Shown in pieces: positions 28,567 through 61,025 of a DNA stretch of 64,000 nt. The position numbers and the translations under genes are program-made. Source of the stretch: Tubiluchus corallicola (taxonomy: Eukaryota > Animalia > Priapulida); NCBI GenBank assembly GCA_030141605.1, contig JAQGDQ010000071.1:475605-539604 (forward strand), read 5' to 3'. The notes under the pieces were generated by a model that did no database searches, was not told the DNA's origin, and saw only the letters and a program-made list of their open reading frames with translations. The first letter of the stretch is position 1, and each line of letters starts with the position of its first letter.

Positions 28567-29266
28567 TTAAATAACAGCATATTTTAAGACTAACAATACC
28601 TGAGTGCTATTGGTTAATCTGCCATTGTAGTATTTAGTGTTCCTGTCGTGTGGATATCGCAATTCGCCGCAGCAGCTCCTGCTTTTCAGGACAGCAATGA
28701 AACCCAACCGGAACTTCCGGTTCAGAAATCCGTACAGGACCGGATCAATCCCACTATTCGACGTGGATATCCATTGGCATATGGGTATGAGCAGTGCCAG
28801 CTGCGCATTGTTATCGGAGACAACTCCAAAATAAACAAACGCAAACGTCAAGTACAGTGGCAGCCAACTGAAGGCGAACACCATCACAACGACTAGGACC
28901 ATTTTTGCAAGTTTGAGCTTCTGTTTTCGAACCAGCGTTTCCAAGTCACGTGTTTCACCAATCACGGGACGTCGTAAGACGTGCAGAAATATCAAGAAAT
29001 AGCAAACACTTATGACAGCTAAGGGAACAATGTAGCACTGCAAAGCTACAACGCACAAGAAGTACCATTTTGCTGCAGCGGGATCGTGCCATCCGAATTC
29101 GCCACAAACTGACAGTAATTGACCCTTGAATATTATATCTACGGCATCGTAATACAGCAACCAAGGAATGAAGGTCAGGCAGGAATATATCCATATAACA
29201 GCAATGAATCGTCCCGCTGCCTTCGTCGTCATCTCATACTTCATCGGATAAACAATAGAAATGTAT
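28567..29266 (-). CDS. SIFaR: GPCR cassette B exon 3: ICL2 to TM7 and C-tail (FAFSWLPLY, QWISTSNSGIDPVLY, KSRSCCGELRY)
   Basis: tttccag acceptor and an intact frame. With exon 1 it gives 356 aa. It may instead splice at CAG|gtattg near 28600 to a further exon. Confidence 0.9.
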
Positions 29267-29344
29267 CTGGAAATATAAATCTCATTATTTTTGCAATACA
29301 ATAATTGCCAACAGGTGTCTCTAGTGAGAAATCCTTTTCAAGAC

Positions 29345-30007
29345 CAGGGCCGGATTTTAATTTTGTAGGCCCCTGGGTTACAGATACATGAGGCTCCGGC
29401 CCCAGTGACAATTAAAAAAAGCGTGAATGTTGGATTCTTCAAATCAGCTTATTCAAATTCTACAAAATAATGCCAACATTAGGCCCACGTAGATGGGTGA
29501 AAGTTTAACACAACAAAAAGAGAAGAAATATTCTGATATTTACAAAATTAAAACATGGAATACATACGAATTACAATAAATTGTAATTTTGTCACAGGAG
29601 GTGACCTCAATTCCTCTAAAATTGTGTCATTGTAATCAGATTGCTAGTGTATTTGGCAGTATCAATGAGTTCAAATAATGAACAAGAAAACAATTTCAGT
29701 GTATTATTACACAGTATATTAATGCATTCTCTAGCAACTTTTCACAGTAATTTACTTTCACTTAATTTCTGGAGGCCCCTCAACTGGCAAAGGCCCCTGG
29801 GCTGCAGCCCATAAAGCCCATGCTCTAGTAACTTTTCACAGTAATTTACTTTCAGAATCTCTGGAGGCCCCTCAACTGGCAAAGGCCCCTGGGATGCAGC
29901 CCATAAAGCCCATGCTCTAGTAACTTTTCACAGTAATTTACTTTCACTTAATTTCTGAAGGCCCCTCAGCTGGCGAAGGCCGCTGGGCTGCAGCCCATCT
30001 GGTACTG
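29345..30007. mobile_element. hAT-type MITE in the cassette B intron, with an internal 92-94-bp triplication (29729-29998)
   Basis: CAGGGCCGG.. and ..CTGGTACTG termini, with 8-bp TSD ttcaagac/ttaaagac. Confidence 0.8.
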
Positions 30008-30360
30008 TTAAAGACAATTAATGAGTTTTGAGAACTCAGCTGATTCACGGCTGTTTCAACTAGAAAATGCTCACTAAGCAGCATTAGGTTTTATACTGTA
30101 CTGTGTTATACTAGCTTTAAAAATCTTTGCATGTTTGTTAGAGATTTCGTCGTCTTTAATATAACATCAATAATTGATTCATTAAACCACCATGCATCGT
30201 CTCCCAAAAGACAGTCACCAAACTAATTTTCTTACTTATTTAATCGTTGGTAAAGAGCAAACATGACTGACTTATTCCTTATTCATTATATTAAACACTT
30301 ACTGATTAATAAGACCAGATTTCAAAAGCAAGCCTCCCTTGCTCGTGTGTATTTGCTTAC

Positions 30361-30460
30361 CTCTCTACAGATATGGTAGCCAGTGTGTTCACGGAAGAGG
30401 AAACGGAAACAGCTTGAAGCCAGACAACTGTTTTGCACGCCCCATCCGAGAACGGATAAC
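30361..30460 (-). CDS. SIFaR: GPCR cassette B exon 2: ECL1-TM3 (SYPFSDGACKTVVWLQAVSVSSSVNTLATISVER)
   Basis: 100-nt exon between aag and gtaagc, with the same phases as cassette A exon 2 and 18/34 identical residues. Confidence 0.9.
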
Positions 30461-30834
30461 CTTTAAAAGAAAGCTTGTGCTAGCAAACTAGAGTTTAGAT
30501 CTATTACTGTATTAGTAAGGTACTAATTATATCTTTTATTTATCATTACTAATTGTTTTGTCTGTATTCAGGTTTTGTGGTTTTCTGCCGAGGAAAGCGC
30601 CAGTGATGCAAAGACGACAGATATATTTTATTCAAATTTGAAAGTAGCTAATGCAAGAAAACACTTTTCATAACAAAAGTTTAAAAAATCGTCTTGAAAT
30701 TTTATATCACTTACATGCTGATTGTAAATTAAAGTACAAGAGAACACTCTTCATAAATAAAGCTTAAACATCGTCTTGAAAGGTCATATTGCTTACATAC
30801 TGTCTTATTGCATACAGGGCTTACGTTAACAGTA

Positions 30835-31200
30835 GCGCTGTATAGAGCTCGTAAATTTAAACTCCCGCGTTAGGCGCAGTCATTGTAATGTCAGTCGTTT
30901 GAAACAAATTTAGATAACATCGCATAAAGTTCGAAAAAATAATCAGAGCATTTGTAACACGCTCCTCGCTAACTAAGCAAAAGTATAAATTGCTTTACAT
31001 TATCAATAAGATTAAAAATACGTTTTTGGTGAATCAGTGGTGCACGCTGGGATGGTGATGCAGTGCCATTCCACTAGTTGTCGCGAGCATTTAAAATTAT
31101 TAAGAAATTTCTTGTCTAGTTACATTTGTTTTTCAAACAGATAAGAATGATGCATACAGAAGTAATGTAACTTCATATCATGGAAAGTTCCTAGAGACAT
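30835..31200. mobile_element. Solo arm of the 26018-26998 fold-back family
   Basis: gtaaatttaaactcccgcg..tctagttacat aligns with the right arm at 26609-26960. Confidence 0.75.
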
Positions 31201-32039
31201 ACTGTACTTTAAAAACCGTTTTGATTCTCGTTAAAAAATTTATTATGAGGTTTTCGGTGACCGCATTGGTAATTTTATTTCATGATATGATATGATGTGA
31301 TTAACATGGTAATGTTATAGCAAAGAATGTTTTTTACTATAATGTTTACGAACTGTATTCTGTACAATAATAATTTGCTAATAAAACACGCTTCATTTCG
31401 TCAGTCACAAAACAGTTCAGGTCGTGGCATCATCCTGAATTCTGTTTGTCAGCTAAATCGATCTAGATTCGCCCTGCGTTATGACTTTCACTTAACGCTA
31501 CACAAATAATTTACATATTTCATTATTGTTGTGACTAACCGACTGACTCAATACTATCTGAGGTTAATACAGCGCCCTTTTCGCCTAGAAATATACTGTT
31601 TTTTATTTTGTATTAATTTGCATTTAATAATGGATAAAGTTACGATGATTTTATGCATGAGATGAGTTTTCTTACTGCAGTTACAAATGTTTGCGGCCTA
31701 AAATGTTTCACTGTTTACCTGTGTTTGTCCTGCACCTCCTATTAACACCGTGTATTATTTGAAATTAATTAAGATTGAACAAAAGATGGCGCTTCTATCA
31801 AAGAATTGAAACTTGAGTAGTTTTGTTACGTTAACGCCAGTGACGCACTACAAGTCCTTTTTTGTAACTTTTGTCAGCAAACAATGATGAATTAAGAAAG
31901 AATAAATGGCTTCCCATTCTTTGGGGCAAAAATCTTGTGCATATGTCATAGATAAGAAAAAAATTAAATGTTCAAGCAGAAAGTCAGTCTGTGTCACCAG
32001 AAAATCATCGACTCTGCCAATCGGTTAGTAGATCAGCTA

Positions 32040-32400
32040 ACCATCTACTTTTCAACCTGGTAATCGATGAACTGATCTCGAAAGTCGGTTCTCGATTTGG
32101 CTATGGGATCGACGAATACCAAGTGGCTATAGTTGGTTTTACCGATGACCTAGTCCTAATCTCAGCCTCGAAACATGGCATGGGAGTTTTGTTGGAGACA
32201 GCCAATGGCTTCTTCACGAAACGAGGTATGACACTGAACGCCAACAAGTGCAAAGCCATGAAGCTAGTCAAGGCATACCAGCGAAAGGCTATGAAAGTGT
32301 TAATAGAGCACACATGGAAGATCTGCCAGACTCCTATTCCAATGCTGGGAGTCAGTGATACGTATAAATACCTGAGAATCCCCATGACTGCCAACCTGTC
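32040..32400 (+). mobile_element. R2/NeSL-like non-LTR RT fragment
   Basis: LLFNLVIDEL..GFTDDLVLIS..GMTLNANKC..YKYL. Confidence 0.75.
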
Positions 32401-34301
32401 TAGTCAACCAGCTGAGCAAATTTATTTATCAGAGAGTCCAAAGATATACCATTTGTGCTGGTGCAGCATGTAACCACTAGCGTGTGTAAAATTTAGAAAA
32501 TCACGCTTAACTTCTGAGAAAACAAAACAATAATAACAGATATGAGATTAATACTGTTTCACTTTTATATTTCACAAATATGAACTTTCACTTCATAAAC
32601 AATGACGTCAGGATTCGCCAGTTAAAATAATCCAATCCAGAAAAATGTGACACATTAATGATAAAACAGTATAGATCTTAAATGTACCACAAAAATACTG
32701 GTACTTATGTAAGTGATTTCTAGTGATGTTGACTTTTCAGCAGTATCAGTCCTGCGTGACTTATAAATGAACAGTCAATCGCAAGGTACAATTATACGAG
32801 CTGTCATAGAAGAAATAAACTGGGGAAATAAACCTGTTAAGCAGTAACTATGACATCAGCTACCGTTCTGTCGGTTTCTCCAATCATTGGCACCTAGTAA
32901 GAAAACTACGTCTCTAGGAATGGCAACTTAACTTTATGATGCGTCCTTAAATGTCAATACCTTATTTTAAACTAAGTGTAAAGAAAGTGTATCAAAAAAT
33001 GATGACACTATTTGCAGCAAGATAGAAAACCAAAAATGGCAGACGGTAATAACTTTATAATTTTATAACTTTATAACCTAATTTTATAATATCAGCAGTC
33101 AATTGACCAAGATACTCATAATGACGAAAGTTTAGTTCATACTTGATTTAATACTTTTTGCAAGCTATATTATTACTGTCTTGTGTAGGATCTAACTACA
33201 ATGATACAGAGCCATGTAGTAATGGTTTTTAATTCATTTGTTGCCAATTCCAAAACCAAGTACAACATCCGGACAAACTGCAGAGCTGATTCAGTCAAAA
33301 GAAGCTGGAAAGTATTGCAACTTTAGAATAGAGAATGCACATGAAATATTTCTTACTATCTCATGGTCACATCCCGTAGAGCAGACTAAAAATTATATCG
33401 TTAAGCATAATCAATGAAAAACAGTGACAACATATGATACCACTAACATCAACATAGACCTAAATCAGACAGTGAGGGCAACTCAAAAAATACACTGGTC
33501 TTGAAAATATAATTTTTCAGATTGCTTCAAACTCCATTGTGATTTATATCTTCCCTGATACCTGATAACTTAATAACAACATTCAAATATTGCACAAAGG
33601 TAACATCACATTATATTAGATAGTGTAATATAACAGGCAGCTACAACATCGTAAAGATTGCTCATACTGCCAAGTGTTAACTAAACAGGCTACTAAACAA
33701 GCCTGCTCAATCCATCAGTTCATTTATTACAAGTACACTTCTATATTCCATACTCATTACACTAATGTGTACAATCATTTTCATTGTCAACTAACTTCAA
33801 CCTAGGCAAGATCAGAAGACAATATTTGGTCACATGCTTGTCGCTACAAAATTTTCCAATCGTGAAGACAATAGCACAAGTTTCATTTGCTTTAAAATTG
33901 GTGCAATAACATCTTTGAACTTGTGAATGTAATATAGCGTGTTTTATACAAATAGTCTGTGATTCACTTCATGACCAAGAGACCATCACAAAATTCGGCT
34001 CACATTCCAGTATCTGCAAATAGGATTATGACAAGTACACTATTTGGGAATAATTTAACAGATGTATTGGTAATCTTGGAAACTAGTCACCATTCGAGTT
34101 ACAAAGCGAACACATCACACTTAGCCCGCACATTGTGCAGAAAAACGTTCTCTTGTAAATTTCTCTTCTGTTATTGTTGCTGGTAACAAAAAAGCAGCTC
34201 CGTCACATGTAAGAAAAGTACCAAGTAGACGCCATCATGCACAACCATCAATGACACTAGCGACATGTGGAGCTGCTTTCAGAAACTCCTCTTCATTTTC
34301 T

Positions 34302-35037
34302 TCACACATCGTCTTTCAAAGTCGCCATACAGTAATCTACATGGGTCTGTTCAGAAACGATCCTCTGACTATTTACTGCAGATGTGGTATAGTGTCCTAT
34401 CCTGTCTCCAGGATACTTCAGCTTCTTACAACAAGACCCACTCATCACTATGGCTTTGAACCCTTGCCTGTATTTTCGGTTTAAGTAGGCATAGATGCAC
34501 GGATTAATACAACTATTTGCAGTGGAAACCCACTGAAGGACGGGAACAGCGTGATTGACGTAACTTAGTGCCACGTCATCAAAACTGTTGAAGTAATAGC
34601 CGATGAAGATGGCGTACAAAGGTAGCCAAGAAATGGCGAAAATCAAGACTACCACCAGAAGCATTTTGATGACTTGGATCCGTTGGCGACGGACAATATT
34701 CTCATACTCTCGAGCATCGCCGATTAAATCTCTTTTCCACACAGCCAAGAAAATGTTCATGTAACAAAAACTGATTGTTAAAAGTGGGGCAACATAGCAG
34801 AGGATGAAGACATTGAACAACAAATTCCACTTCATCGCGTGTTCGTACCCGTTCGGCCATTGTTCCATGCAGTAGCGTATGATTACTTGGCGATCTGCTG
34901 ACGGATTATCAGTTATTTGGAAAAAAGCAAACCATGGAATAAAAAACGCCCCGGCGCAAATCCAGATGGCAGCACAAGCTTTTCTAGCTGTCCTCAATGT
35001 CATCTGAAATTTCATTGGGTGGCAAATGGCAAAGTAT
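34302..35037 (-). CDS. SIFaR: GPCR cassette A exon 3: ICL2 to TM7 and C-tail (FAISWLPLY, QWVSTANSCINPCIY, SGSCC)
   Basis: ttttccag acceptor and an open frame to the stop at 34302. SWLPLY, QW..NSCINP and the post-helix-8 CC match SIFamide/NPFF receptors. Isoform A would be 368 aa. Confidence 0.93.
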
Positions 35038-35331: not shown

Positions 35332-35431
35332 CTATCAAGAGAAATTGCCACCAAAGTATACACAGATGTCGCCACCGACAAACCCTGAAGCCATGACACC
35401 AACTTGCATGGTATCATGCCGAACTGATAAC
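35332..35431 (-). CDS. SIFaR: GPCR cassette A exon 2: ECL1-TM3 (SYQFGMIPCKLVSWLQGLSVATSVYTLVAISLDR)
   Basis: 100-nt exon between tag and gtaagc, phase 1 to 2, with the intron inside the Arg of DRY. Confidence 0.92.
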
Positions 35432-37169
35432 CTATAATACAAAACACTCATGTTATAATAATAAACTAACAAAAATATCATTATGCATAAAACGATTATG
35501 CATAATTATACATAAATTATAACACTACATCAGCATAATTAATGTTAAACAATGCTAAACAATGTTAAACCCACAATAATTAATTAGCTATTGTCGTTGC
35601 TTATAGTTTTTGATCACATCAGTCAGTTAGGCACCTTCACAATAATTAATGTGTTTTAAAAAAATGTAAAACAAAAAGCAATTGTCACAATGCGATGTAA
35701 TGTAAAATTTATTTTAGTCGTAATTATAAGCACTGGGCAACTACATTACGACTGTAACAGTCAGTTACACAATAATAAGGCTTTCACAGTTTCGTTGTGC
35801 GCACGCGCAGTTGTTGTAGGTCGTAGGTTAAGTGTACCACAGCAACCCGTCGTATCTACAATCGTCACGTGACATGTGGGTAAAGTAAAGCCCAGTTCAG
35901 TAACGTCAGTGTTTTCGTGGACTTCACTTAACTGTGCAATAGTCTGTGCGGGATCTTGTTTGGGAACAAGAGAAAATGAATTAGAATTAATTACTAATCC
36001 AATAGCATGGACTGCGAGGTGTGGTCAAGTGAACACAAATGCGTTGTCTGGTACATTTAACCTTTGACCTTTCCACGATCATCATCAATCGCTGGAACTG
36101 CGAAAAGGCTTATTAACTGACTGTACAAGCTACTGCTATTACTATAGCTAATGCTGCTATAACTGCTACATTACCATTGCTATATAATAAACTAATTATA
36201 TTAATTAATTAGCATAATTTAATTATTAGCAGTTTTCTGTATTAGTAATTATACCAATTAATCAGACCAACACTAGCAGTTAATTATCAGTATTATAATA
36301 ATTCTCAATTGTTAAAACCTAATAACACTTATTATTATTATAAGGCATAATAATTCCGTTTTGTGCAATACAACACACAATTTAACAATTGCAGACTTAT
36401 CATCATCAAGTTTACAAAAATCATGGCATGTAAATTCCCTGCTCACAAATAAAAAATTAAACACAGTTAATCATGCTTTTGTGTTTAAATTAATTGTATT
36501 TGCGGGCGCTTAGAACTGCAAGAATGTGTTGGTGACATGCAGTCCACTGCACCTACATGCAGTTTACATGCAGACACGTGACATGCATGCGATAGTTGTT
36601 CTGAAACGCATAATAATTAATATGACGTTGAACGTTGGAGGTCTGTTTAATTTCTCGCAGCTTCAAAATGAAGCCATTAATTAGGTCGTCATTGCAGCAC
36701 GATAAGTGCTCGGTTCAGCTAGAGATAATGACTTATCTTCATTATGTTAGTACGATGTGACGAAAATTACGTGTTTATTAAGCGAAAAACCATCACGCAT
36801 ACCGTAGATGTCAAAACCAGAAGTGCCCATTCTGAGAAAAGTAGGAAAAAATTATGGCAAATAATCATTTGCGGATGTCGTAGTAGCCAGTTAGTAAATG
36901 AATCAGCTACACATAGTGATGATAACTGTTTATTTGGTATAATACAAAATGTAAAGGCATAACAACTCTTTTTGCAGTAGAACTTGAGTAAACACTTTTG
37001 TATCCAACTTATACCTGATGTAAAAACTATACAACTGATTATGTTATAAAGTCACAATGATTGTATGTTAATGCATGCCCAGTTGGTTAATGGAATAAGT
37101 AGCATAAATATGAACAATTCTGACAATTTCTCAGTCAAAAAAGCTTTTGTCGTTTTAACTTTAACACTC

Positions 37170-37370
37170 ATAGCTAGTTTATTGGACAACAAGCGTATTT
37201 TCTGTTGGGAGGTTGCGGGTTCGATACTACGGTGGGGTAATACAAACACTTTTTACGTGGCACCTGCCTGGGTGGATTAACGATTCTGTAATGTAGCTGT
37301 AGTTGTTATTTACAGCCGCTGATAAACGCCTAGTGTTGTCTATTGAGTTTAAAACCATCTTTAAATAAAG

Positions 37371-37453
<83 letters not shown>

Positions 37454-37490
37454 TATTACTATTATTATTACTATTATTATTATTATTATA

Positions 37491-37563
<73 letters not shown>
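37170..37563 (+). mobile_element. tRNA-derived SINE ending in an expanded (TTA)n tail (37371-37563)
   Basis: B box gggttcgatac at about 37217, and aataaag immediately before about 190 bp of TTA. Confidence 0.6.
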
Positions 37564-37564
<1 letters not shown>

Positions 37565-40424
37565 AAGAAAAGCAAGGCCCTCTAGGAAGTTGGGCTTATT
37601 TCAAAAATGTTAGAAAGATTTAGTAATAAAATTGCTATAAGTGCTTCGTGTAATTAGTAAAATCTCCTTAAAATCGCGATCATTTCACGGTTGGGCGCTG
37701 CTATTTTTAAGGCCTGTTCTTCCCCTAATGACATCGTTCATCAAAAGCAGCCCACTCTTATTTGCCGTCAAAACTGTAAGTTTTCATAAAAAATTATACA
37801 GCTAATTTTTTGATATTTTTGTTCGAACATTAGGTATGCTGCAGAAGCTTGAATTAGTTTATGCAGCGCGTGCTTACGGAAACTTACGATGCGCTTACGA
37901 AAAGTCACGAAGTCCACCAGTTACGCCACAATTTCAAGTGAACGGTGGCAACCACCGCGCCGGAAAATTTCAAATAAAGCGAAAGTAAAAATTAACTTTA
38001 TGCTTTATAGACAATTTTTGCAATTTTACTTCTTATATTTTTCTACATTTAGGTGATAGCAGTAAAATAAACCCAACATGCTAAGTGACTTGTCATTTCT
38101 TTAAAGAAAATAAGCCTAAAGGTAAAGACGAATGATGAAATATGCTTAGCTTTAGCAGGCAGCAACTTTCTTACACAAACTGTCACTAATAACATGTATT
38201 GTTATGGTCACAGCAGCCCCGAGCATTTCCTTTATTCGAGATTTAGTAAACTTCAGCGTTTCTTACGTCTGTTGAAAAGTGCAGATCGAAATCCATTACG
38301 CTTGTTTGATGCTTCAGCGGTGTGCCTTTTCTAATTCACTTATCAGTCTGAAGCAGCGGAAATAAATTATGAGGAAAAGTTTACGCGGTGTGACGACACA
38401 ATTACAGAGTGAGTCCACAGAATGGTGATGCTGCGGTCAGTGATTCCCAGTCGTCCAAATATTTTTCTTGAAACAACCGGTGATTTTCACTGAGTTGGTT
38501 GTTCTGAGATGAGGGAAGCAGAACAGCCGAGTGGCCACGGCGTGTACTTCGCGAGCAAGGCTAAGCCACGCCAGGCAGATGAATCAATCACTTGTGACCG
38601 CTTGTGTTCCATACTCTCTCTTGGCGGTTTCATTGGCCATACGAACTGTGGATGTTTACGTTCGAAGACTAGACGATTTGAGTGCAGTGAGATGCAGCCC
38701 CAGCCGATTCAGTCCAACCTCATCCTAGCAGGTTAACTTCGTAATGAGTCACAAGGTGCAGAACGGTATAAAAAATAAAATACTCTTGGTAAAATGGCAA
38801 AAGGCAAGAAGGTCTCAGCTGGCTTTGAACCAGGTGTCTTCAGGTACACAGGTACTGTTCTTGCTGTCATCGCGTAATTTTCGTTGATTTAAAAGTGAAC
38901 TCGGTAGAACTGAGAAACTTTGGCCCACCTTACAGTGAGGAGCATTCCTTGGGGCATTCCTCATGGAACACATTGTTTTTTATGGCGCATTTCATACAGA
39001 CGTCTCATGTGGAAATCAGATAAAAAAGTTTGGGATTCGTGAAAACAGTACGGATAGCAATCGCAGCACGAGTGGACCATTTGTGTGGCAAGTTAACCCC
39101 GTAGTTTAAGAAAAAACGAAACCAAAACCAGGTTTTGTTTAATTTTCTGCATTCTGAGTAAAACGTTCAAATTTTTGATTTTTACAAAAACATTGGCCTA
39201 TGAACGTTTTAAACTGAATTCACTTTTTTTAGGAATGGTAGCCTATTTAAAAATGTACAACATAAATATTATTTTTGCCTAAAAGAAACGTCAATATGTG
39301 TACTTAGTTATACTTATAAAGCTTTTTCATAATATATTTACTTTTAGTCTAAGTATCATGATGTAGCCAACATTGTTACAATTGTGTTTTTGAAAGCGTC
39401 ATTTTCCTTGCGTCCTCAGTGTGAAGTGGGCCTTAGGAATTTATGTTCACCACGATCAGTGTTCTATTTTTTCGTTTTTGTAGTTGTTGCTATGGTCACG
39501 TTGTTGTCGTCATTGTCATCATCATCGTCATCGTCATCGGAGCCTTTCAGACGTTTAGACACTACAGAAAGCAACATCATTTATGGTGCTCTCAAACTAC
39601 ACATATTGGTAAAGGGGTAAAGTTGCACAGTTCACATCATGCCGAGATATTTTTGGTTTGAACTTGTCGTAAGTCGATAGATTGACGAACAAGAACGAAG
39701 ACAACTCCTATAGAAAGCGAATACAGCCGCCAGCGGCAATCTAGGATAAATATCCCCTTGGAATCACTTAAGCGAGCGCCGAAGTAACGCGCTCAGTAAT
39801 ATTTATTTTGGGCAATACATTTTAGCTTGTAATTAGCTGTTTCAAAAATGCCATCTGCAATCGTAATATAAGATAATACTGTAATTAAAAATGTAACATA
39901 CGTATTTTGTGGAATACGTATACATTAGTGCTGGATCCTGCATGCAATAGCCGCTGCTACAAAGTATGAGAAGCATTTTCATGCACTAATTTAAAAATGT
40001 GGTAAAGGCATGCTTATTATTCGTAATATATAATGCAGTGCCAGTGCTATACATGTATAAATAACAACCAAACGTACCCATTGCAGCAGAAAGCGGTAAC
40101 TTGCAGACGGTGTACAACCATAATCTCATTGTCCAGGTAAAATAAAAAAAATCTGGAGCCATCCACAAACGCACGTCGAACAGCAATAAAAACCGAGGGT
40201 AGAAAAAAGGAATGCAAACCAAAGCAATAGAAAGCACATAAGCACGAAACAGGTGCGAGCCACAACATCTAGATTAAAATGCGAAAAATTGTAGCATGTT
40301 CTGAAAAACTTGTAGGGGCTTTGTGACAGATATTTAACTATGGTGCAGGCTGTGTGTTTTTGCACCATCACAATTTTAAAAAGATGTAAAATAACCACAT
40401 TTTAAAGTATATCACACTTAATAC

Positions 40425-40670
40425 GCAGGATACAAACGGAGGTGTACCACAAGGATCCACTGTAGGACAACTGCTTTTTCTTAGCTACATCAATGATCTC
40501 TTTCTTATTACTGATTTCAGTACATATCTTTTTGCTGATGACAGACCCCTTAATCAAATCCATCCACTAATTCATTTCAGTTCCAACATCACAATAACAG
40601 AGAGCTAACTGGATAGAAGCATACAAATTATCAGCTAATTACACCAAAATTAAATATATGATACTAATAA
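40425..40670 (+). mobile_element. CR1/L2-type RT fragment
   Basis: Translates as GVPQGSTVGQLLFLSYINDL..LFADD, then NWIEAYKLSANYTKIKYM after a frameshift. Confidence 0.8.
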
Positions 40671-43854: not shown

Positions 43855-43858
43855 AATA

Positions 43859-43907
<49 letters not shown>

Positions 43908-47184: not shown

Positions 47185-47590
47185 GCATCCACCACCACCA
47201 TCATCCAATGAATCACACGTCCAGGGACATGATTCTGCTCACCTCTCTATGCCAGGTCTCCCTGCTCGCCGCAGTGCCCCAAGTGCATTTATTTCTAAGG
47301 ATCAATGCTGAAGTGTTTAAATCTTTCTGTGCAAAATCTAAATATGTTAACATTTGTCCCCTGCAGGTTTTTTAGCTGGTTCTATGGCTTGTTGAAGAGC
47401 TATCTTCACTGGAATATCATCAGGTAGTCTAAACATATGCCCAATCCATCTTAAACGGCGTCTTTTTATTTTTCTTGTCCAAGGTTCTTCTTTTATTTTT
47501 TTCATATAGATCTTTGTTTGAAATTTTCTTTGGCCATCTAATACCCAAAATGTTTCTGTAATTTCGCCTTTGAAACACATCGATTTCAAA
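47185..47590 (-). mobile_element. RTE-clade LINE 3' fragment
   Basis: FQRRNYRNILGIRWPKKISNKDLY and KRRRLRWIGHMFRLPDDIPVKIAL across a frameshift. Confidence 0.82.
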
Positions 47591-48799
47591 ATACGGCCAC
47601 TCTTTCACTGCGCCAAAACAATGGTACAAATCTTTTTGATTGCCGAAAGTCACTAAATCACTCACATTCAACTCAATTTATTCACACCTATTGTGAACTG
47701 AAATATACGTAAAATAAATAAAAATACATAGGATGTTTAAAAAATAAAGATATAGTGTTAGTTTCTTGCTTGAAATAGGTTTCAATTGCTTCTATTCGTG
47801 TTTCCGGAAGCTTAGTGCGTTTTCATTTCATTTGATAAGTAAAAGTATGTAAATATGTTAAAAAAAACTCATTTCTGGTATTTACTGGTTTCGATACAGT
47901 AAGTTTATACAGCCAAATTCGCTTGTGCAATTGAATAGAATTGATTCACGCGATTTCACGTTGTATATCACGCAATAAAAACTGTTTGTTTTGTCATTTA
48001 TCTTGTATGTCTGAAATTGTTTCAACAAATTTTAAATCTCCATCAGAGCATACATTAATCAAAACGTCAAGGACCAATTATAGAAGTATTTACACTCTAA
48101 ATCATCATCATCATATGCCCATTACGTCTATTGTGTCTCTATTGCAGAACTCTAAAATAAAAGAAATCTTCTCTCAAGACAGGTAAACGCAGCAGTAATC
48201 AAGCAAAAAACTAGATACTGCTATGCCAGTGACTTGTCAGTGATCGAAATAACACAATATGGAATATCTTCAAAATACTGAAATGGAAAAGCTTTATTGA
48301 TTTGTTACTTTTTGAACGCTCTGCCTTTATCACAACTCGATGACTTTAGCCAATCAAAACAAAGTCATTTTCTCATAACTAATAAAAAGAATAAATTCAT
48401 GTCCAGGACGTTTTGCGCGTCTGAAACGACGCAGGCAGTTTTGCAAGACGTTTTAATACTTTTCCTCCTTTGAAGTCCGTCTCCTGTGGAATTTATAGTT
48501 CGCTTAATTGAGAAGTTGTTTGTATATGGTCTGCATACTGTAATAAATTTCCTTATTCAACTAAACTCCATGTTAAATTGTTTCGCAATTTCTACTAGCG
48601 CAGCATCAAAATAAATTGCGTATATTTTTTGCACGTACAATAATTCAAGAGAGTTGCAGCGTCGTTATATTTCTGCATGAGGAATTCATCTAAACAGATA
48701 AGTATTAGAACGCAATTTATGCGGTGAAATTGTTTACATCTTATAACTTTAATCGTCGTCGCCATCGCCGCCACAAGAGATGCCAAAGAAGAGCGCACA

Positions 48800-49180
48800 A
48801 AGGGGAAGAAAGGGGAATTTTGAAGTATATCTCAAAGAACTTTCCACATAAAGTTTTATAACTTAGCATTACACTTACCTGTTTGAAACATTTATTATGT
48901 AACTAGAAAAGAGAAAAACTAGAAAATAATTTAAAATGTTCGCGCCAACTGGTAAAACGTCACTCCAGTGTGTATCGCTGATTCACTAGAAACGCATTAC
49001 AGATTTTATTAGCAAGATAAAGTAATTTATACTTTAGCTTAGTTAGCAAAGAATATGTTACAAATGGCTAGATTATTTTTACAAACTTCACGCAGTGTTA
49101 TCTAAACCTGTTTCAAATGACTTTTTTTAAATGGGTGTTTATATTTACAAGTTTTACTAAGCGTTACTGCTAACACTTAG
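48800..49180. mobile_element. Solo arm of the 26018-26998 fold-back family
   Basis: aaggggaagaaa..tatatctcaaa..actttcc..atgtaactagaaaaga aligns with the left arm. Confidence 0.75.
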
Positions 49181-49437
49181 TAATTTCTTCTTCTCCCTTC
49201 CTTCTTCCTATCCCTAATCTTACTATTTTTTCCATTCCATCATGTCTACTAACCCTAACCATTCTTTCGTTCACTCATTTGTGCCACCTTAACAAGCCAA
49301 GCTTTCAAGGTGTCATACGGCAACTCTTTTATTTGGTTAATTTGACTTCATCAACGCTTTTTTACCTATACTGTTTCTTTTTGTTTCAATAATATTGCAT
49401 GTTGATGTATTGTATATGTATTGCTGGAGTGAAATAA

Positions 49438-49543
<106 letters not shown>

Positions 49544-50211
49544 CACAAGCTCTGTTTACAATAATATAGCATGTAGGTGATACAAAATTACAAGACTAAT
49601 TCTTTAACCTTTATTTCTGAAAAGTGTTTTCTTATGCTTTAAATAACCGTTTCCAACGTTTGACCGCACGCTAAGCATGACAGGTTTGATGAAACGTAAG
49701 GCTTCCGCCAAGGTATAAAATTTAAGAAAATTAATCATCACTGAAAACCAATTCGACTAAAGGTTCTAAAATTTTATTAAAACTGATGAGATGTTGAACT
49801 AATTGAAAAAGGGGAACACATATAAATGTTCACCGCTATCTAATAGACTTCTGAAACAACTAAAAACTTCACAAGCTTCCCTGTTACGGGCGTCACGTGA
49901 CAGTCTGTACTTGTTACTTGCATGATATGATGACGTTCACGGTGACATTCGTCGACAAGCACTGAACCGAACGTGTGCTTACAGACATCCCATAACTAAA
50001 GCCCTGAGGAGCTCGCAAATTCTGAATTAAAGTATATATACGTATTTGGCAGGAAAACGAAAAATTTTTGCAAACTATAAACCGCATTCAGTGAATTTGC
50101 AAAATACTGCAGCTTTCTTTGATACTTATTTAAGACCCATCAGACTTTCTGTTTTCATTATATATTTATTTATTTATTTATTCATTCACTCATTTATTTA
50201 TTTATTTATCG

Positions 50212-50362
<151 letters not shown>

Positions 50363-50999
50363 CATACATTCATTCATTCATTCACTCAGTCACTCATTCA
50401 TTCATTTACATTTGTTTATTTATTTACTATTTTATTTATACTTTTAAACTAGTTTCCGAAGCTGGCAGGTCTTTCAAAAGAATAAACAGAAATAGCTCAA
50501 TCGGCTGCAAGCTGTTTTTCCATGTCGAAGGTTGCCGGTTCAATTCCGCGTTTAGCAGTTAGCTTAAAGCAGTTAGAAATAAAAACAATGTTTACTGGAA
50601 CTTTCTTCATGTATTGAACAAACAGGGTCAAGTTTCTGCAACACAGAAAAAAGGTTAACTCCACCCAGCGAATATAACGACGCATATATGCTTCACCCAG
50701 GTATATCAGCCCGTCGGCTACATAGTGAGACGGGGAGATGGAGACATTAACCCAGACAATCTAGAACCTGTAGTTGCTCAATGGCTGGAACCATGTACTC
50801 TGTGTGTGTCATATAATCGCTCATCTTAGACAACTACCTAAATATTCTGACATCGACACATCATCGCTGACATCAATATTAGCACATAATGATACCGCTA
50901 AACAAGTGGAAAATGTACATAGATGTTCGTTGTTATTTAGTTTAAAAATAATTTATTATAGGATTGGATCAGACAGTTTGAACAACATTATTTAGGATC

Positions 51000-51350
51000 C
51001 TCATCACAACAGACTTTATACACTATTTACAAAAACATTTACAGTAAGAATAGACTATAACTACACAAGCTGACAAGTTTTACTACAAGATTACATTAGA
51101 CATTAGTAGAAAATGACGGTTAGAAAATATTAATGTACGAATATTTAAGACTGATGCATTTCATATCAGATAGAAACTACTGGAAGCGTTTAGTACGTAA
51201 TATAAAGTCATGTAGGCATTGGAATATTGTACAGTTAGCAACATAGTTAAGTTCATCTTTTCCGAATAATAACAATTTCAACAGATCATTAGTTCCTAAG
51301 GCAGCTATATTAAGGTTGTCGGGCAGAAGTTGCTATTTCAGCGAATGCCT
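51000..51350 (-). mobile_element. Degraded LINE 3' end
   Basis: An LLFGKDEL..CTIFQCLHDFILRTKRF-type ORF2 terminus on the minus strand. Confidence 0.55.
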
Positions 51351-51864
51351 TTGTATATTTAGACATACGAAAACTATTTTGCATTACTATTGTATAATAT
51401 TGCTGCGTATAATAGTACTTGCATTTTGCTAAAAGTGTTTTTTAATATGCACCCAGTTTGCATTTACGTGACGTCACTGATGTAGCAGTAAGGAACATGC
51501 CTTGTTACGAACTTCTTACAGCTACCTTGCAATTTGTAATTTTATTATAATTTTGTTGGTCAATAAATTACATACATACGTAGGTAAGTGACGCCCGCAG
51601 CATTTTTGATACGCCACAAATTGCGTAACGTGCAATTTGCGCATGTACATTAAGTGCATTACTAAAATAACGCAAATGGATTATAAGGTAATTTCGATGC
51701 CATTTATGGCAAAACAGAAAGCCTATGCTTGCGGCAGGCTAGTGTTAACAATTTTGAAGTAATTCGACGTAAAATTTTAACATTTATGAAAATGTCGGTC
51801 TAATTAACTTAATTTATACAAGCGAACAAAAACATAACTTGAGGAAATGAGTTAAAGTGTTAAT

Positions 51865-52089
<225 letters not shown>

Positions 52090-54599
52090 ACTTTTAAAAC
52101 AGCAATCCGTTTTCAAAACACAAAAATTAAAAACAAAATCACAATTATTGTACATTAAGTTGTTTGTCTTTAAAACATTTGAAAGATCACGTTTCGTAAA
52201 CAACAACACTGCGCATTACAGTCAAACTACACTGAATTAAACTAGACGCATCGACGCATGCACACTGCCATCTGTTTGAATACGTAATTTCGCGTGCAAT
52301 TTAGATTTTGTTTTGGAAGATTTTGCAAAAAAAGTTTCTAAAATATTGCTAAATTAAACGCCTCTGGGTCTGTTTTTGCCAGCGCAGACTCAAGGTCTTA
52401 AAATGGCTGGCTTAAAATGTGACTAGGACAAGAACAAACTAATTGGCAAAACTTGAAAAGGTTGGGCAACTAAACTTACACAGCTTATAACACTCAAGGG
52501 AAATAAAAATTTTGGAGGGATGCTCGGTGACCTATGGTGGGTCAGTCAGGGTGGTAGTTGTTGGCTGCTTAAACTACAGGTGTTTGAAACTGAGTTACAT
52601 AATAAAGTGTGTAGAGATTTAATACACGCCTCTAAATTGGTCACTCCAAGTGAGTGGGCGCGGCTGACAGAAGCCAAAATGTAAAATAAGGAGTCACAGG
52701 TTCGATGACCTGTTAAGAAATTACCAGCAGCCAAATTTTTGTTTTACAAAGTAGATACCTGAGGGCATTCTTATAGTAAACAGAGATTCTATCGAATAAC
52801 GTTTAGAATTCAATAAGTAATTAAACAATGTTCAAGTCAGTTGACGGAGAAAGAAAAAACTTCAGAGACATTATACTGGGAGCCGACTAGGGCACAGATC
52901 CTAAATTTTAGACTAAGCTTTTCAACATGTCTGTGAGCAGAATCCGCCAGTCTTATTTAAACGAACCAACTGAGATTGCACCAGCAAATGGTGCATTATT
53001 ACATATGTACCAGCGAAATTACATGTTCTCTTAGCAGAATTAGCCAGTTTTATTTAAAAGAACCAACCGAAATGCACCGACAAATTTGCAAAACATGCCG
53101 ACACAAGAAAATGGGTTAACAGAAAAGACATTTTTGACGTAAGCATACAGCTCGAAGACTTTGGGAGTCTGGAAAAGAGTTTCATAACCTATATTGGATA
53201 ACTTATAAATCATATTCCTGGTGGCAATTGCCCGAAATGATACGTTGACGGTCGGTAATTTGGACAATACAAACGTCAAATATAATAAAAATGAAGTGGA
53301 TAAATACATCAAAGTTTTATGGAGTAGAAAAATACAACATGTAAACCAGTAGACCGGTAATCCGCAAGAGATAATTCCTGTGTGGCTTAGAAAATAATGA
53401 CATTCGGACCATTTACAGAAAGAGAGACACTAATGTATATAGATATTGTAAAAGAACTAACCCAAAATGATCTTATAGTAAACTGATTATACAGGATACT
53501 GTGTTATATACGAATGACATTAGCTTAACATTATTTATGTATGTAGAAGCTACAACATATACTATTTGTACATACAGTATAACATGTATAAACAATGTAC
53601 GCAATTATTAGATATATAATTAGAATTAATAAATCATAATGCAGTATTGTTAGCTTGTTTAGTAAGAAATTGTAACTGTGAAGAATTTAATGTAAAAATT
53701 TATTCAATGTACATAATGTAAAGATTCATTTAACATTTTTGTACTTATGTGCCCTGCAAATAGCGGGCTTATTGTATCATTTTCAATAAAGATTTTTAAT
53801 AATAATAATAATAACAATAATAATAATTCCTGGTGGGGGACACTTTCAGCAGGTCAACCAGCAACTTTTAGTTTGTGATTAAAAGTCAAAGGCCAATTCG
53901 CAAAATTACATCTCAAACACTAGAGGAATAAAGTTCAAAACTTAATAGTATTAAGCAACAGATTAGTGTGAGGACAGATTATAGAAGGAATCCCCGGCAG
54001 CACTGAATGTGTGATTGAGTTCAAAAGCTAATTTCTCAACTGACAAATAGCTTAAACAGTAACGAAAACTCAACATGTGGAATAAAAGCAAGCCAATTAA
54101 TAAGTAAATTGACGCGACGAAAATGTTAACGCCCTTCACTTGCAAGCCTTTGAGTTTCGTACAGTCTATCTGTGACGCTGCAGGACAGTGTCTTGCAACC
54201 CAGATCTATTTACTTCATTATTACCTGAACAAAATGTCGCAGGTTGTATTTAAGTACAGTGATCGGAAACATGCATTGCCGAATTTTGATGATTAATCGC
54301 TAAAATAATTTTTGCTTGAATTAACGACTATGAATCCACTATGAGCTCATTGATTTGCCCTCACTGCCCCAAGTTTTTTTTAAATCAATTTGTGAAACGC
54401 AATGCTTCCTCGCTTTCCAGGTGCTAAACTCTGACCGTATAACAGACGTACAAACAAAGTCTTTTTCAACATTTTATTCGCGAAATATCACAATTACAAC
54501 TTACGGGCAAAGGCTCGTGTTGCACAAGCTAAAGTTTTTAATCCTTTGGAGCTTAACGACACCACATTATTCAAAACTTAATAATGTTATTGAGCGCAT

Positions 54600-55250
54600 A
54601 GCTGTGTTGTTTGAATACAATAGTATAGCACTATTACTCTTCCCTCCATTTTGCAAAAAAATCTTTGAGAGGCACAATAAATGCAAGTTTAAAGCAGCGC
54701 AGAAAACATTTTTTAAATTTAAGCTCAAATGAGTCTGCTGTAATTGGCGTAAATTTAGCGTAAAATTGCTGAGATACATAATTACGGCACACGTTATAGA
54801 CTGAACTATCACTACATACAGTGCAACACTAATGTTAGAAAATTTTCTATTAAATACAATGGAATTCAATTGCTCCAGCTATTAAAAATGCCAACTCGCT
54901 GCCCATATTTAAAAAAATTTATAAATTAAACTTACTTGAAACGTATAACTGATCACTCAATCATGATTTGTTGTTTTTCATTTTCAAAAACTTCCCCTCT
55001 AGTATAATAATATTTTTATTACTTCCCACCCGTATTTATATTTGTATATATTGTAATATTGTATCTGTATATATTGTAATTTTTTCGTAACTAATTCTAG
55101 TGGCCTACCATAAGCTAGCTTCTTAGGTCTCTAGCGCAGAATTCATGAATTGTATCATAAGTTTGTATTAACAAAAACTGATTATCGATGCACATGTAAT
55201 GTATATGTATATGTTTATTGCGAAATAAATCTATTAAATCTAAAAAAAAT
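54600..55250 (+). mobile_element. Degraded LINE 3' end
   Basis: A WNSIAPAIKNANSLPIFKK remnant near 54860, an AT-rich UTR, and AATAAA plus a short tail near 55225. Confidence 0.55.
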
Positions 55251-55789
55251 CTGACCAGTTGCATTTTATCTGTGTTTTATCACATACGCGTGTGCATTGT
55301 TAAGTACGTATGAGATACCCGTGACGACCGCCAAAACGAACACAGCTTGTTTCACCTGCACAAAGCTTTTCATTATGGCATGGTATTTTAAATATGGTCT
55401 GGTTATCAGTAATATCTACATTTGGCACCCAATCATGTGTTTCGTTCAGTCAGTGCTGCTTTAAATCTAGGAAGCCACAACAACAACGGAGCAATAATCA
55501 TTTAACTAACCGAAGTCTAATACATTCTGAAATGTAGCAGTTTAACTGCTGCCAGCGTTTAACCTTTTCCAAACTTAAATCATTTAATCCAGGCCATTAT
55601 CCCGGGCCACAAATTTCCATCTTTATTGCTCGCCGCATAATAACCGCCTAACACCTCACGACAATTTATGTAAAATATAAGCCGGTGCCGACATTTCCGT
55701 TTGTGAGCACTATGCTGTGTTTTGTTGCTATGCTGTAATGGCTGATGCAGTCTGTTCAGCTTGAGAAGGGGGATTGGGGAGCAGTGAAA

Positions 55790-56026
<237 letters not shown>

Positions 56027-56108
56027 AGCAGATATACCATTTTGTTTTCACAATAACACGTATAAAATAGACTAAACATGACCCATAAGTCCGAAGCGGT
56101 GTTTTATC

Positions 56109-56385
56109 CAGTGCCGTATTCACACTTGGTGAGGATATAAGCACTATATAAGGCTCTGAGGCCCTCTTTTTTTAAATTTCGCCAATTGGTCCCAGAAAAC
56201 TTGAAAATATGCGTGGCTTAATTATTTATAGCAAAGAGAACAATACACTTGACTAAAACATTACTAAATTATTACTTAAATATAAAAATGGGTATAAAAC
56301 CCAATCTGGAACCTTGTTGAGGCCCCATGTAGATTGTGAGGCCCTAAGCTGTCGCTTACTCAGCTGATACCTAAACCCGGCGCAG
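56109..56385. mobile_element. hAT-type MITE
   Basis: Perfect 8-bp TSD gttttatc (56101-56108 and 56386-56393), CAGTGCCG and CGGCGCAG ends, and GAGGCCC subterminal motifs as in the 29345 element. Confidence 0.8.
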
Positions 56386-57129
56386 GTTTTATCTTAGTCA
56401 GGCAAGTGATTAGTACGCATTCAACAAACGTGGGTGAATGCTAAGTTTGATCCCCTTGTGTTACATAACAGGAAATAAAAGTTTTGCTTATGAAATTTTT
56501 ACAAATTACAGCAGGGTTCCAGAATTGGTCAGCTTCGACTTTAGAGGTCAAACAGATCATTCGGGAGGTCTAAAGTAGGTTTAAAAGAGGGTCGAAAACT
56601 GACATTCGTATAGAAAATAAAAATACATAAAATACTAAGATAAAATATAATTTGTTTATACATTAATGCCTAACTCATATATAATCATAATTCATAAGTC
56701 TTGATTATCTATTTATTTTATATTCAGTTTGCTAGTACACAATGATATCCATATTATGTTGTTATTATTATGGTAATAATTTATGATTAATTGGAACCAA
56801 AAGGCAATGGACCGTTATAGTACCAATGTTTCTATATTTGGATAAATTGACTTACATTTTCTTTCCCTTTATCGTGTTCTATTATTTAAAAGACTCGATG
56901 TAATCATCATCAACACTGAAATCTTTTGATATTTGAAATTTTTTTAGTTCATTTTACTTCAAAACTGGGTTGTGGCAACGTTAGATAGAGTGTCCCGGGC
57001 TTCCTAGTTACTTCATTTCCTGTCCTATTCACTTACGTCATTTCCTAGTTACGTCACTTCCTGTCCTACTCACTTACGCCAGATTTCATGAGGAGGTCGG
57101 TGGTTTAAAGAGTTTGGTTTTCTAAACTA

Positions 57130-57470
57130 CAGGCTGCCAGTGAGTTGACTATTTCAAATACATCGCTTTATATGAAGTCAGATGTCATTTGAAGATCACT
57201 GATGACAATTGGATATATTCACAAAATTAGCAGCAAGCTTGTAAAAAATTCTCAAGAATTATGAAAAAAAATTTGGTCTATCATCCAGCATGGAAGCAGG
57301 CATGCGCTATTTTTCTTGCGCTTGTAGTATTAGTCAGTCCAACACTCGCATTTGTATTAGGATTCATAATGATGAAATTTGAGAAAAGCAATATATGTAA
57401 AGTACACACAAATGAAACTTTGATGAAAATGCTGATAGGAGTAATATTATATGAAAGTCTAACGTCCGCG
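57130..57470 (+). mobile_element. Possible relic of a hAT transposase C-terminal dimerisation domain
   Basis: LVVLVSPTLAFVLGFIMMKFEKSNICKVHTNETL resembles the LPVSTAxCERxFSxMKxxKxxxRxxLxxETL consensus. Confidence 0.35.
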
Positions 57471-58786
57471 AGTCTACTTAGGGACACCCAATTGCCCTTG
57501 GACAGTTTCATAAAGCAAAATATATCGTTTAACTGCAGGCAGCGGTTTTACGCATTATTAACTTTCTCCTCCTTCTCTGCTTTCTCCTCTTCTTCTGTGT
57601 CTCTTTTAAGGGCGTATAAACATAGTCAAACTCCAAGTGTTCAGCAGAACTCGGGAAACTTTTGATTGGCCCCTAAAGTGGTATTTTTGTACGGTAATTT
57701 AGTTATTTGCTCAAAATATACAGAAAAATTTACGCACGAAAAGAACATACGTACAAAACATATTCTGTATCTAAGTCAACATTTTTATTACGCTAGGTCT
57801 AACAACAGACAGCGAGTGCAAGTCTCCCCTTGGTGCTGCGGGCTGCCGTATCGGCTTTTAGTTATCCATATGCAACGGAATATTTTTCTGTTTCAAGACA
57901 AGTTTATACAGTTTCAAGACAAACTTTTATTGCTTGGAAACAGTTTGTACTTTGGAAGTTTAGAAGTGGGACTTTGCTTGCTTTGTTAAATTTAAGTTTG
58001 TTCTGAAATTAAATGTTTGTAGTGGATTAGCGTGCCCTCGTAAGACAAGGACAACATTTATTTGCTGTCGCTTGTTTAATAGACAACACTTGCACTAACA
58101 GTTATTTAGCGGCTTATACTTAAAACAATATGGATAAGGACACTTAAACACGAATATGTAGGGTATGTGCCCTGACATTGGTAGCCGGTAGTCTCGAACT
58201 CAAGACTGCATGTCCGAAATCTAGACCAGTCGGCCAACCAACCCAAGACAATGCTGCTACGTCAATTATTACTTCGGGTCTTCCTTAAATTTTTTCCAAC
58301 TTCTAATTTCTGAACACTCCGTTCAAGACTAGAATAATCTCCTCTCGATAAGAAGTTGACCAACAAGCACTTTCCACGATTTTTCGGGCGCCATAATTCA
58401 GTAAGCTCGCAAGACCATAAAAAACTTTTAGCGTCAAGTTTCAGCTTCTGTTTGCAAACAATATTATTTCTGAAAAATTGTATTCATCTTATTTAATCTT
58501 GCATAATCCTCGACAAATTTCGTTGAGCCACTTCATAAAATAATCCTTGCTAAATCCGCCGATATTCTTTCACGGCGATCAACAGCAATCTTTCTGTCGT
58601 CATTAGTGGGTTCTTACTGCACAATAACTTTTTCATAGCGGATTATCAGAATGAATGTGATTGGAGCTTCCTCTGATTAGCAAAGGGAAGTCTTCCATTC
58701 TTTATGAGTGTTTGTTGTCGTGCAATCATTGACTACTGCAGAGATTATGCAAAGAAAACTTAGCCTGGTGGATAAGAGTAGAATTT

Positions 58787-59165
58787 ATCATCATCATCAT
58801 CATCATCATCTACATCATCATCATCATCATCACCATCACCATCATCATCATCATCATCACCATCATTGTCATCGTCACCATCGTCGTCGTCATCGTCGTT
58901 TTCATCATCATCATCAACAACATCACCATCATCATTACATCGTCGTCGTCATCGTCGTTTTCATTATCATTATCATTGTCGTCGTCGTCGTCATCATCAT
59001 CATCATCCTCATCACCATTATCGTCATGATCATGATCATGATGATGATCATCATCACCATCATTGTCATCGTCATCATCGTCGTCGTCATCGTCGTTTTC
59101 ATCATCATCATCGTCATCATCATCATCATCAACATCACCATCACCATTACATCGTCATCGTTATT
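58787..59165. repeat. (CAT/CGT/CAC)n microsatellite
   Basis: Read directly. It explains the poly-His/Ser/Ile ORFs. Confidence 0.96.
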
Positions 59166-60754
59166 TCGCGTCGTCACTATTGTTTTCGTCACTTCTCAGA
59201 ACATTATTCCCCTATAGTTATAATATTGCTATAATACGCAAAACCGTCTTACAACAACTATACCTCCTTCATTCTTTTTTCATCCTTCAAACATCAACAT
59301 CACTCACCAATGTTTTCATCGTCGTCGTCGTCGTCGGTAGCTCATTGTCGATGTCATCTGTTCTTGTTATCATTGCCAGTAACTTTGTCTGTTTTTAATC
59401 TACCCTTTGCTAGTTTGGTTTTGTTTTATGACGCAGATTTGCACGTTTATAGAAATACAATCTAGACGAGCGCATCCCTTCTCATTAAATGCAACACTTA
59501 GAGAGAAATGTGCTGGTAAATTGTTTCTAAACAACCCTAATTGTTGAGTTGAACAAACATTAAAAGCCTTGTAGGTAAAGGCGAAATTACTTGCATTTGC
59601 ACAATTATTTTAACATACAAACTACATGTATTTTTACAAGCAAATGAAAAAAAATTGTAATCAAATCTTATCTCTGGCCTTCAGGTGTGAAAATAAATTG
59701 ATAAAGTGGGTGTTATGGTGGCCATAAGAACGGAAGAAACGTGATAATGGTAAAGGTACTTTCACATGCATACAGAATGTGCTGCGATGATGTCGATCGG
59801 GCAGACGATTATTCACTTGTTTCGTTGGAAGTACATTCCGTAAAAATATGAAAGCACCTTTAGTTATTATATAGTCAGAAATTTATTTTATCGTAAAAAT
59901 AAGCTTCGATGAGATTGCTGTATTACAAAGAAAGTTCTTAGAAAACAAAAATATTGCCGCATGAAATAAATGTAATATCGCGCAACAAAACAAAGTTGCC
60001 AACGAAAGTGTTTTAAATAATTATCTGATAAAAGTAAACAAGTTACTATTGGATGAAGCTTGAAATATTGTCTAAAACAAATACTAGGCATCATTTCGAA
60101 TTTCGAATAATGCTGGAAAAATATGCAGGTCACGACAAGTGATCGTCACAACAGAATGTGCTTTTTCTGTTTTTTTTTCACTGAAAACTCAACAGTTATT
60201 TTAATTAGAATAAAACGATAATAGTCTTTAAAAACAAATTACCAAAAAGCTCCCTTCGCTTGTAAGCCTATAATTTCTCCAATGGGCTTTCTTGATTTTT
60301 TTCGGTGAATTTTTTCAACCAATCACCATTCTTACTGGGTAATGAGCTTGAGCTCTTACAAATTAGAAAAGTTTCACAAGAGTTCACTGCTGTACCTGAA
60401 GATTATAGTCCCTATACGACGTCCTCATAACATTAATTTTAAATACGTAATTGTTAAATTATTATTTAAAGATAGTCACGTGTGTCTCTTCTTTCCCATT
60501 ATTGAACATTATTTTATTATAAACTAACACATTCGTACAATAATTCAATTTTCATTCGTCTTAAATGCAAAATTTGATAATTTTTAATTACCTGGTACAT
60601 GCGCATTAACTAATTAATTATATTAGTAACAATTCTTACCTATGTTAGGGTGCAATGAACAATTCACCTTACAATAAGGCTACAGATGAATCTGCCATTG
60701 GCTCTATTTTAGTGTTTAAAATGAATGATTACCGTTAGAAGTGTGCATACTTAC

Positions 60755-61025
60755 TTGCAAATAAACTATTGACTAGATTAAAAGGTAAACAGAAGAGCAA
60801 CACCAATATGTCCGCCGCCGCAAGGTTAGCAATGAAAAGATTGGTAACGTTCCACATGTGTGGACTTCGAATCACCACAGCTAACACAAAACTGTTTCCA
60901 ACCACTCCCACAATGAACACTATCACGTACGCCATTGTTAGAAACACTATTTCCCAGTTATGGTCCAATTTTAGCTCCGTGCTGTAGGATAAGTTAGTTC
61001 TCGATATATCGGTGGAATTCGACAT
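60755..61025 (-). CDS. SIFaR: Neuropeptide GPCR (SIFamide/NPFF receptor-like), coding exon 1: N-terminus, TM1, TM2
   Basis: caaaacATG start, N-glycosylated N-terminus, VGVVGNSFV (TM1) and [15 protein letters not shown] (TM2). Phase-1 donor A|gtaagt. An upstream acceptor cttatag at 61139 implies a 5' UTR intron. Confidence 0.92.

Follow-up and report, generated by a model that had tools for sequence, protein, structure and literature searches.

A predicted SIFamide/NPFF-type receptor gene of the priapulid Tubiluchus corallicola with a single exon for TM1-2 and two alternative cassettes for TM3-7

A 64,000-nt stretch of the genome of the priapulid Tubiluchus corallicola (contig JAQGDQ010000071.1, positions 475,605-539,604; hereafter, the window) raises the question of how many receptors of the G protein-coupled type (GPCRs) come from a locus where duplicated 3' coding units, arranged in tandem and with equal splice phases, lie behind what is, within the window, a single 5' exon. 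This exon encodes the N-terminus and the first two transmembrane helices (TM1 and TM2) whereas each of the two downstream units, cassettes A and B, encodes the rest of a receptor. The best reading, to which we assign a probability of roughly 0.7, is that the locus is one gene of the SIFamide/NPFF receptor type in which the TM1-2 exon is joined to either A or B, one at a time. The two predicted receptors would share 91 residues and be about 43% identical in the rest. The same gene model was put forward in a preliminary description of this DNA; it passes all the sequence tests that were run, whereas the alternative splicing itself is what we infer from them.

All five exons are found on the minus strand where the preliminary description had placed them, and both second exons are 100 nt long and alike in their phases (Table 1). 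AG precedes all four acceptors, GTAAG follows exon 1 and both second exons, and the joined frames contain no internal stops (368 amino acids for exon 1 with A and 356 for exon 1 with B, as described before). A Pfam search matches exon 1 to positions 1-46 of the 7tm_1 profile (E 2e-10) and the third exons of A and B to positions 84-260 of the same profile (E 4e-28 and 6e-26, respectively). Characteristic Class A motifs are present over TM1-7, namely N1.50, D2.50, C3.25, D/ERY, W4.50, P5.50, xWxP and NPxxY (DPxxY in B), and both predicted products are Class A (rhodopsin) GPCRs. Given that exon 2 of cassette B starts in phase 1 and that no in-frame start codon precedes intracellular loop 2 (ICL2), cassette B needs an upstream exon. 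The phases also match between exon 2 of A and exon 3 of B, and this combination remains in frame, giving a hybrid of 356 amino acids.

Table 1. Parts of the predicted receptor gene, in window coordinates (ECL, extracellular loop)
Feature	Position	Strand	Remarks
Exon 1, common to both forms (N-terminus, TM1, TM2)	60755..61025	-	271 nt, phase-1 donor
Intron 1	35432..60754	-	25.3 kb, rich in repeats
Cassette A exon 2 (ECL1 and TM3)	35332..35431	-	100 nt, phases 1 and 2
Cassette A exon 3 (from ICL2 to the C-terminus)	34302..35037	-	736 nt, stop TGA
Putative polyadenylation signal, first AATAAA past the cassette A stop	33723..33728	-	
A-B gap	30461..34301	-	3.8 kb; reverse-transcriptase fragment and high-copy repeat
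Cassette B exon 2 (ECL1 and TM3)	30361..30460	-	100 nt, phases 1 and 2
Cassette B exon 3 (from ICL2 to the C-terminus)	28567..29266	-	700 nt, stop TAA
Putative polyadenylation signal, first AATAAA past the cassette B stop	28287..28292	-	

The closest named relatives of the predicted proteins are XP_014672862 and XP_014677779 from Priapulus caudatus and arthropod SIFamide-receptor-like proteins (the names are database annotations), and the best-matching solved structures are those of the orexin and NPFF receptors. Phylogenies were built with FastTree (119 rows; 117 of the 161 fetched proteins had enough coverage) and, for 27 hand-chosen rows that include no ETHR, with IQ-TREE. In the IQ-TREE phylogeny, a protostome set of 20 rows (support 95/91) stands apart from the RYamide, PrRP-like and deuterostome NPFF receptors, and A and B are placed among the SIFamide receptors, in agreement with the earlier assignment. 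By these comparisons, the gene is a member of the SIFamide/NPFF-type receptor family. Orthology to the ETH receptors was considered and rejected: there is no ETHR among the named matches, the best of which are SIFamide/NPFF receptors. A clade of seven rows (97/98) unites cassettes A and B with three Logan proteins and both Priapulus proteins; within it, A is the sister of P0013 (97/93), and P0014 and XP_014677779 are the weakly supported partners of B (70/78). Monophyly of A and B is not rejected (p-AU 0.131) despite the support for the A-P0013 grouping. The priapulid-like clade comprises at least three deep lineages of SIFamide receptors (P0001, P0017, P0018, P0013, P0014). Proteins resembling A (P0013) and, weakly, B (P0014 and XP_014677779) are thus on record as protein sequences, P0013 and P0014 perhaps not from another species. 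A metagenome scan yielded 56 loci, all at most 40% identical over long segments, with no close relative. Arthropod-type SIFamide-receptor open reading frames (ORFs; e.g., P0003 and P0004) end right after TM2 at the same boundary as exon 1 in the window, which suggests that the post-TM2 intron is old and seemingly common to the arthropod-type ORFs.

Whether the two cassettes share exon 1 depends above all on whether B has a TM1-2 exon of its own. A TM1-2 profile built from seven relatives, with the window sequence left out, scores 107.5 bits on exon 1 and -0.7 bits on its best minus-strand match in the A-B gap; the best match elsewhere in the window, a valine repeat, reaches 12.3 bits, and three shuffled windows give 4.4-8.5 bits. 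Nothing like a decayed TM1-2 exon turns up between the cassettes even when profile matches are followed down to -30 bits. A tblastn search of the window with exon 1, the check proposed at the outset, returns only the exon itself (next best E 1.3). In the gap, no open frame of at least 40 amino acids runs up to one of the listed types of phase-1 donor, with exon 1 recovered by the same scan as a control. Intron 1 includes 11 such frames with a phase-1 donor, three of them with hydrophobic stretches and none matched by the TM1-2 profile. Among 616 ORFs of at least 40 amino acids, 137 located beyond position 30300 passed the complexity and GC filters, and 120 of these, including those of intron 1, were scanned against Pfam; the sole match was below the threshold (E 0.009), and no nested gene was found in intron 1 among these ORFs. 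Within the window, the profile, tblastn and open-frame scans therefore agree with the original statement that neither 30461-34301 nor 35432-60754 contains a second TM1-2 exon. Joint use of exon 1 by both cassettes is, on this evidence, probable.

An exon specific for B could nevertheless have escaped these scans, either because it is located upstream of the window, in an arrangement of interleaved genes or of two first exons, or because it was lost from the A-B gap in the assembly. The window ends at position 64000, the gap contains high-copy repeats (one copy at about 30650-31150, with others outside the gap at 26110-26920 and 48820-49640), and both Priapulus relatives have TM2 ends of their own and are encoded on different scaffolds. 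The DNA run X1 covers the locus in fragments: 24 of 30 bins have depth, and none of the listed pieces spans the gap. However, the window contains no N, the listed unique pieces of run X1 agree with the assembly without differences, the joints shown are all within repeats, and it is unusual for tandem genes on one strand to be interleaved. Taken together, these observations make a separate TM1-2 exon for B unlikely. The contig of run X1 over exon 2 of B has a depth of 30, compared to 4-14 on the other listed pieces, a value that is unreadable as a copy number.

The comparison of A and B over 263 codon pairs shows identity of 0.50, 0.64 and 0.34 at codon positions 1, 2 and 3, respectively. Synonymous sites are saturated (proportion of synonymous differences, pS, 0.80; 8 of 36 fourfold sites equal), the introns of the two cassettes show no similarity, and protein identity is about 43%. 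The cassettes are old duplicates, as previously proposed; identity in exon 2 is 17/33 in the new alignment rather than 18/34, and the strong divergence holds. The comparison of nonsynonymous and synonymous change that had been proposed produced a proportion of nonsynonymous differences (pN) of 0.41 and, owing to the saturation, no numeric ratio. GC content at third codon positions (GC3) is 0.51 in both A and B, against 0.35 for the window. Among the 66 residues that are invariant in five SIFamide receptors, A retains 52 and B 49, the same number as each of the two annotated Priapulus receptors, and the distances to XP_014672862 are alike (exon 3 identity of 44% for A and 42% for B). In 2000 simulations of a neutral copy of B, the frame was stop-free in 0.2% at 0.2 substitutions per site and in 0/2000 at 0.5. 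Neutral decay of B, which the preliminary description named as a finding that would speak against its model, is not seen: the frame, splice sites, motifs and GC3 are intact. Both cassettes, judging from these patterns, have been held by long-term purifying selection. A recently orphaned copy would still be open, however, so that the saturated synonymous sites prove past selection only.

This last point leaves room for an alternative in which B is what remains of a whole-gene tandem paralog that recently lost its first exon and is now silent, such that only receptor A is made. The distance between A and B equals the distance of either one to the Priapulus paralogs, as might be expected of old separate genes; after a recent orphaning, the frame will often still be open; a polyadenylation signal after A could end transcription before B; and the gap contains remains of a mobile element, a reverse-transcriptase fragment at 31952-32470 (+), with another in the window at 11157-12566 (-). 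Against such a history stand the profile search of the gap, which picks up no decayed TM1-2 exon, the intact splice sites, motifs and GC3 of B, and the size of the gap, which at 3.8 kb is small for a deleted promoter and first exon given an intron 1 of 25 kb. A recent orphaning of B is accordingly improbable. Production of B without exon 1, as a truncated product with 4-5 TMs that is expressed from an internal promoter and modulates A, or with TM1-2 added by trans-splicing from another locus, is very improbable: an in-frame Met is present in ICL2 of B, but the A-B gap yielded no coding first exon, and TM3 of B, upstream of this Met, retains C3.25, Q3.32, V3.36 and ERY, which are sensible only in a complete receptor.

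Several observations count against a single gene that produces both receptors. The window extends only 3 kb upstream of exon 1, so that a TM1-2 exon could be located farther upstream. The simulated neutral B is still open in 45% of the cases at 0.02 substitutions per site, and B has the DPxxY variant in place of NPxxY and a longer end branch (0.82 compared to 0.66 in A). An A-type Priapulus protein was not seen among the 120 matches listed. Finally, RNA pairing of the docking/selector type was not found in a scan of 1.45 kb after exon 1 (of the 25 kb intron) against 600 nt before each cassette, with 229 of 276 control pairs being as strong. On the other side, XP_014677779 starts within TM2, and in this stretch 15 of 21 residues are identical to exon 1 of the window, compared to 13 of 24 residues identical between the other Priapulus paralog and the end of exon 1; the exon-1-like end of XP_014677779 lends weak support to the possibility that the exon 1 found here goes with a B-like body.

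If the gene functions as one unit with two alternative 3' cassettes, splicing of the exon 1 donor to the acceptor at 35431, followed by cleavage after A at the candidate signal at 33728, would produce receptor A; skipping to the acceptor at 30460, with cassette A removed whole as an intron, would produce receptor B. The choice would then be made by splicing coupled with alternative polyadenylation, as in the known 3' tandem cassette clusters, and splicing of exon 2 of A to exon 3 of B could provide a third form, the 356-residue hybrid. The AATAAA at 33728, on which the earlier proposal relied for polyadenylation after A, is present and is the first signal past the stop, but it is weak evidence alone because 10 AATAAA/ATTAAA hexamers occur in the 3.8 kb gap. 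No 10-mer common to the regions before both acceptors was found, and the list of inverted repeats is swamped by microsatellites. The contigs of run X2 (guessed to be RNA; 13 million letters) cover no more than repeats and one 80-nt stretch, with none on either exon 2, and provide no evidence either way. A copy of the high-copy repeat located just upstream of the B acceptor is inverted relative to the copies in intron 1 (70-85% alike). Pairing of such copies could in principle loop out cassette A although, given the copy number, the arrangement is likely due to chance. In the intron of cassette B, a unit of about 94 nt occurs three times in tandem (29725-29998).

A study of the NPFF receptor NPFFR2 lists, among the contacts of the RF-amide end of the ligand, positions 3.32, 3.36, 5.38, 5.39, 5.42, 6.52, 7.39 and 45.52, and holds the outer pocket responsible for subtype selectivity (PMC12069643). 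When A and B are numbered from the alignment rather than from a structure, they are identical at seven of these eight deep-pocket positions, 5.38 being the only exception; Q3.32, V3.36 and E45.52 are kept in both cassettes. The differences are found at 3.29, 45.51, 6.58, 7.32, 7.35 and 7.49 and in the loops and the tail, whereas position 6.59 is Tyr in both A and B, compared to Lys in the arthropod receptors and Asp in the NPFFRs. Since the deep pocket is almost the same, different tuning to one peptide family appears likelier than recognition of two unrelated ligands. Both forms would probably bind the same family of amidated peptides through the common deep pocket and would differ in affinity, coupling, desensitization or cell type, like ETHR-A and ETHR-B. 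The original suggestion of pharmacologically distinct receptors is thus supported only in part: 7 of the 8 positions around the RF-amide end are the same, and it is the outer pocket, the NPxxY motif, the loops and the tail that differ. A more elaborate, doubtful possibility is that the locus is modular, with one TM1-2 module, two TM3 exons and two TM4-7 exons that could be combined into A, B and the A2-B3 hybrid, with differing peptide preferences and G-protein coupling.

The nearest precedent is the insect ETHR (CG5911 in Drosophila, ethr in Bombyx), similarly a single neuropeptide GPCR gene with a common 5' part and two alternative 3' units. In Bombyx, ethr consists of two common exons and two alternative 3' exons, each of which encodes the C-terminal part of the protein starting at the end of TM4, about 60% of the receptor (PMC8175484). 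The resulting ETHR-A and ETHR-B respond to the same peptides with different sensitivity, the half-maximal effective concentrations of ETH and PETH being 0.466 and 9.428 nM for ETHR-A and 0.236 and 0.406 nM for ETHR-B, and are produced in non-overlapping cells (PMC8175484, PMC3510462); this alternative splicing is conserved in arthropods (PMC8175484, PMC3510462, PMC6158917). Unlike ETHR, the gene described here belongs to the SIFamide/NPFF receptor family, which implies an independent origin; the swap starts from ECL1/TM3 rather than from the end of TM4 and involves about 75% of the protein; and the cassettes consist of two exons each, allowing the in-frame A2-B3 hybrid. The alternative splicing is demonstrated for ETHR and predicted for the gene described here. 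Duplicated 3' terminal cassettes are known also from Drosophila PGRP-LC, CG42235 and pip, where splicing is coupled with alternative polyadenylation and where internal splice sites are possible as well (PMC6191721). In contrast to the present gene, these clusters do not encode GPCRs and use docking-site/selector pairing, of which there is no sign here in the regions scanned. NPFF and SIFamide signaling are orthologous, and priapulid neuropeptide signaling has been little explored (PMC5818035). The arthropod SIFamide-receptor isoforms inspected (Portunus X1/X2) differ by a deletion, not by duplicated cassettes, and no description of a SIFamide-receptor gene of such design was found in the literature searched (largely papers outside subscription). 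The general design is already known from ETHR-A/B, a precedent that the preliminary description does not mention; the new aspects are that the receptors belong to another family, that the swap occurs at TM3 and that each cassette consists of two exons.

If both junctions are used, this gene would be an independent case of the ETHR-type design in another neuropeptide receptor family, likely outside arthropods, and would indicate that GPCR paralogs can persist within a single gene and under a common promoter; one of the two receptors would be overlooked when genes are counted from standard annotation. The locus would also amount to a natural helix-swap experiment in which the same TM1-2 has to pack against two TM3-7 bundles with a difference of about 57% between them, so that the roles of TM3 versus TM4-7 in ligand choice and coupling become directly testable. 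In case the modular reading with three receptors turns out to be true, it would represent a second, independent ETHR-like invention that cuts deeper into the ligand pocket.

The ends of both cassettes show minor peculiarities. The final 10 codons of B (28570-28600, minus strand) are AT-rich, with a GC content of 0.23 compared to 0.45 in the exon body, and are preceded by a weak possible donor at 28600; cassette B may carry a further tail exon beyond this point. An 80-nt piece of a contig from run X2 (depth 44.7) aligns, with six differences, to the last part of cassette A and the adjoining 3' untranslated region (34238-34351, minus strand), whereas the rest of A is not covered. A short frame of 24 codons from 34309, in another phase and with no Pfam match, overlaps the end of the cassette; part of the tail of A may thus derive from a repeat or from another gene. 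Downstream lies a separate gene (17423-20306, minus strand) that comprises an exon rich in cysteine (about 20306-20142), a transmembrane exon with its end at 19069 and, at 18067-17423, a last exon; the first and the last exons have no Pfam match, and the last one contains two PPxY motifs.

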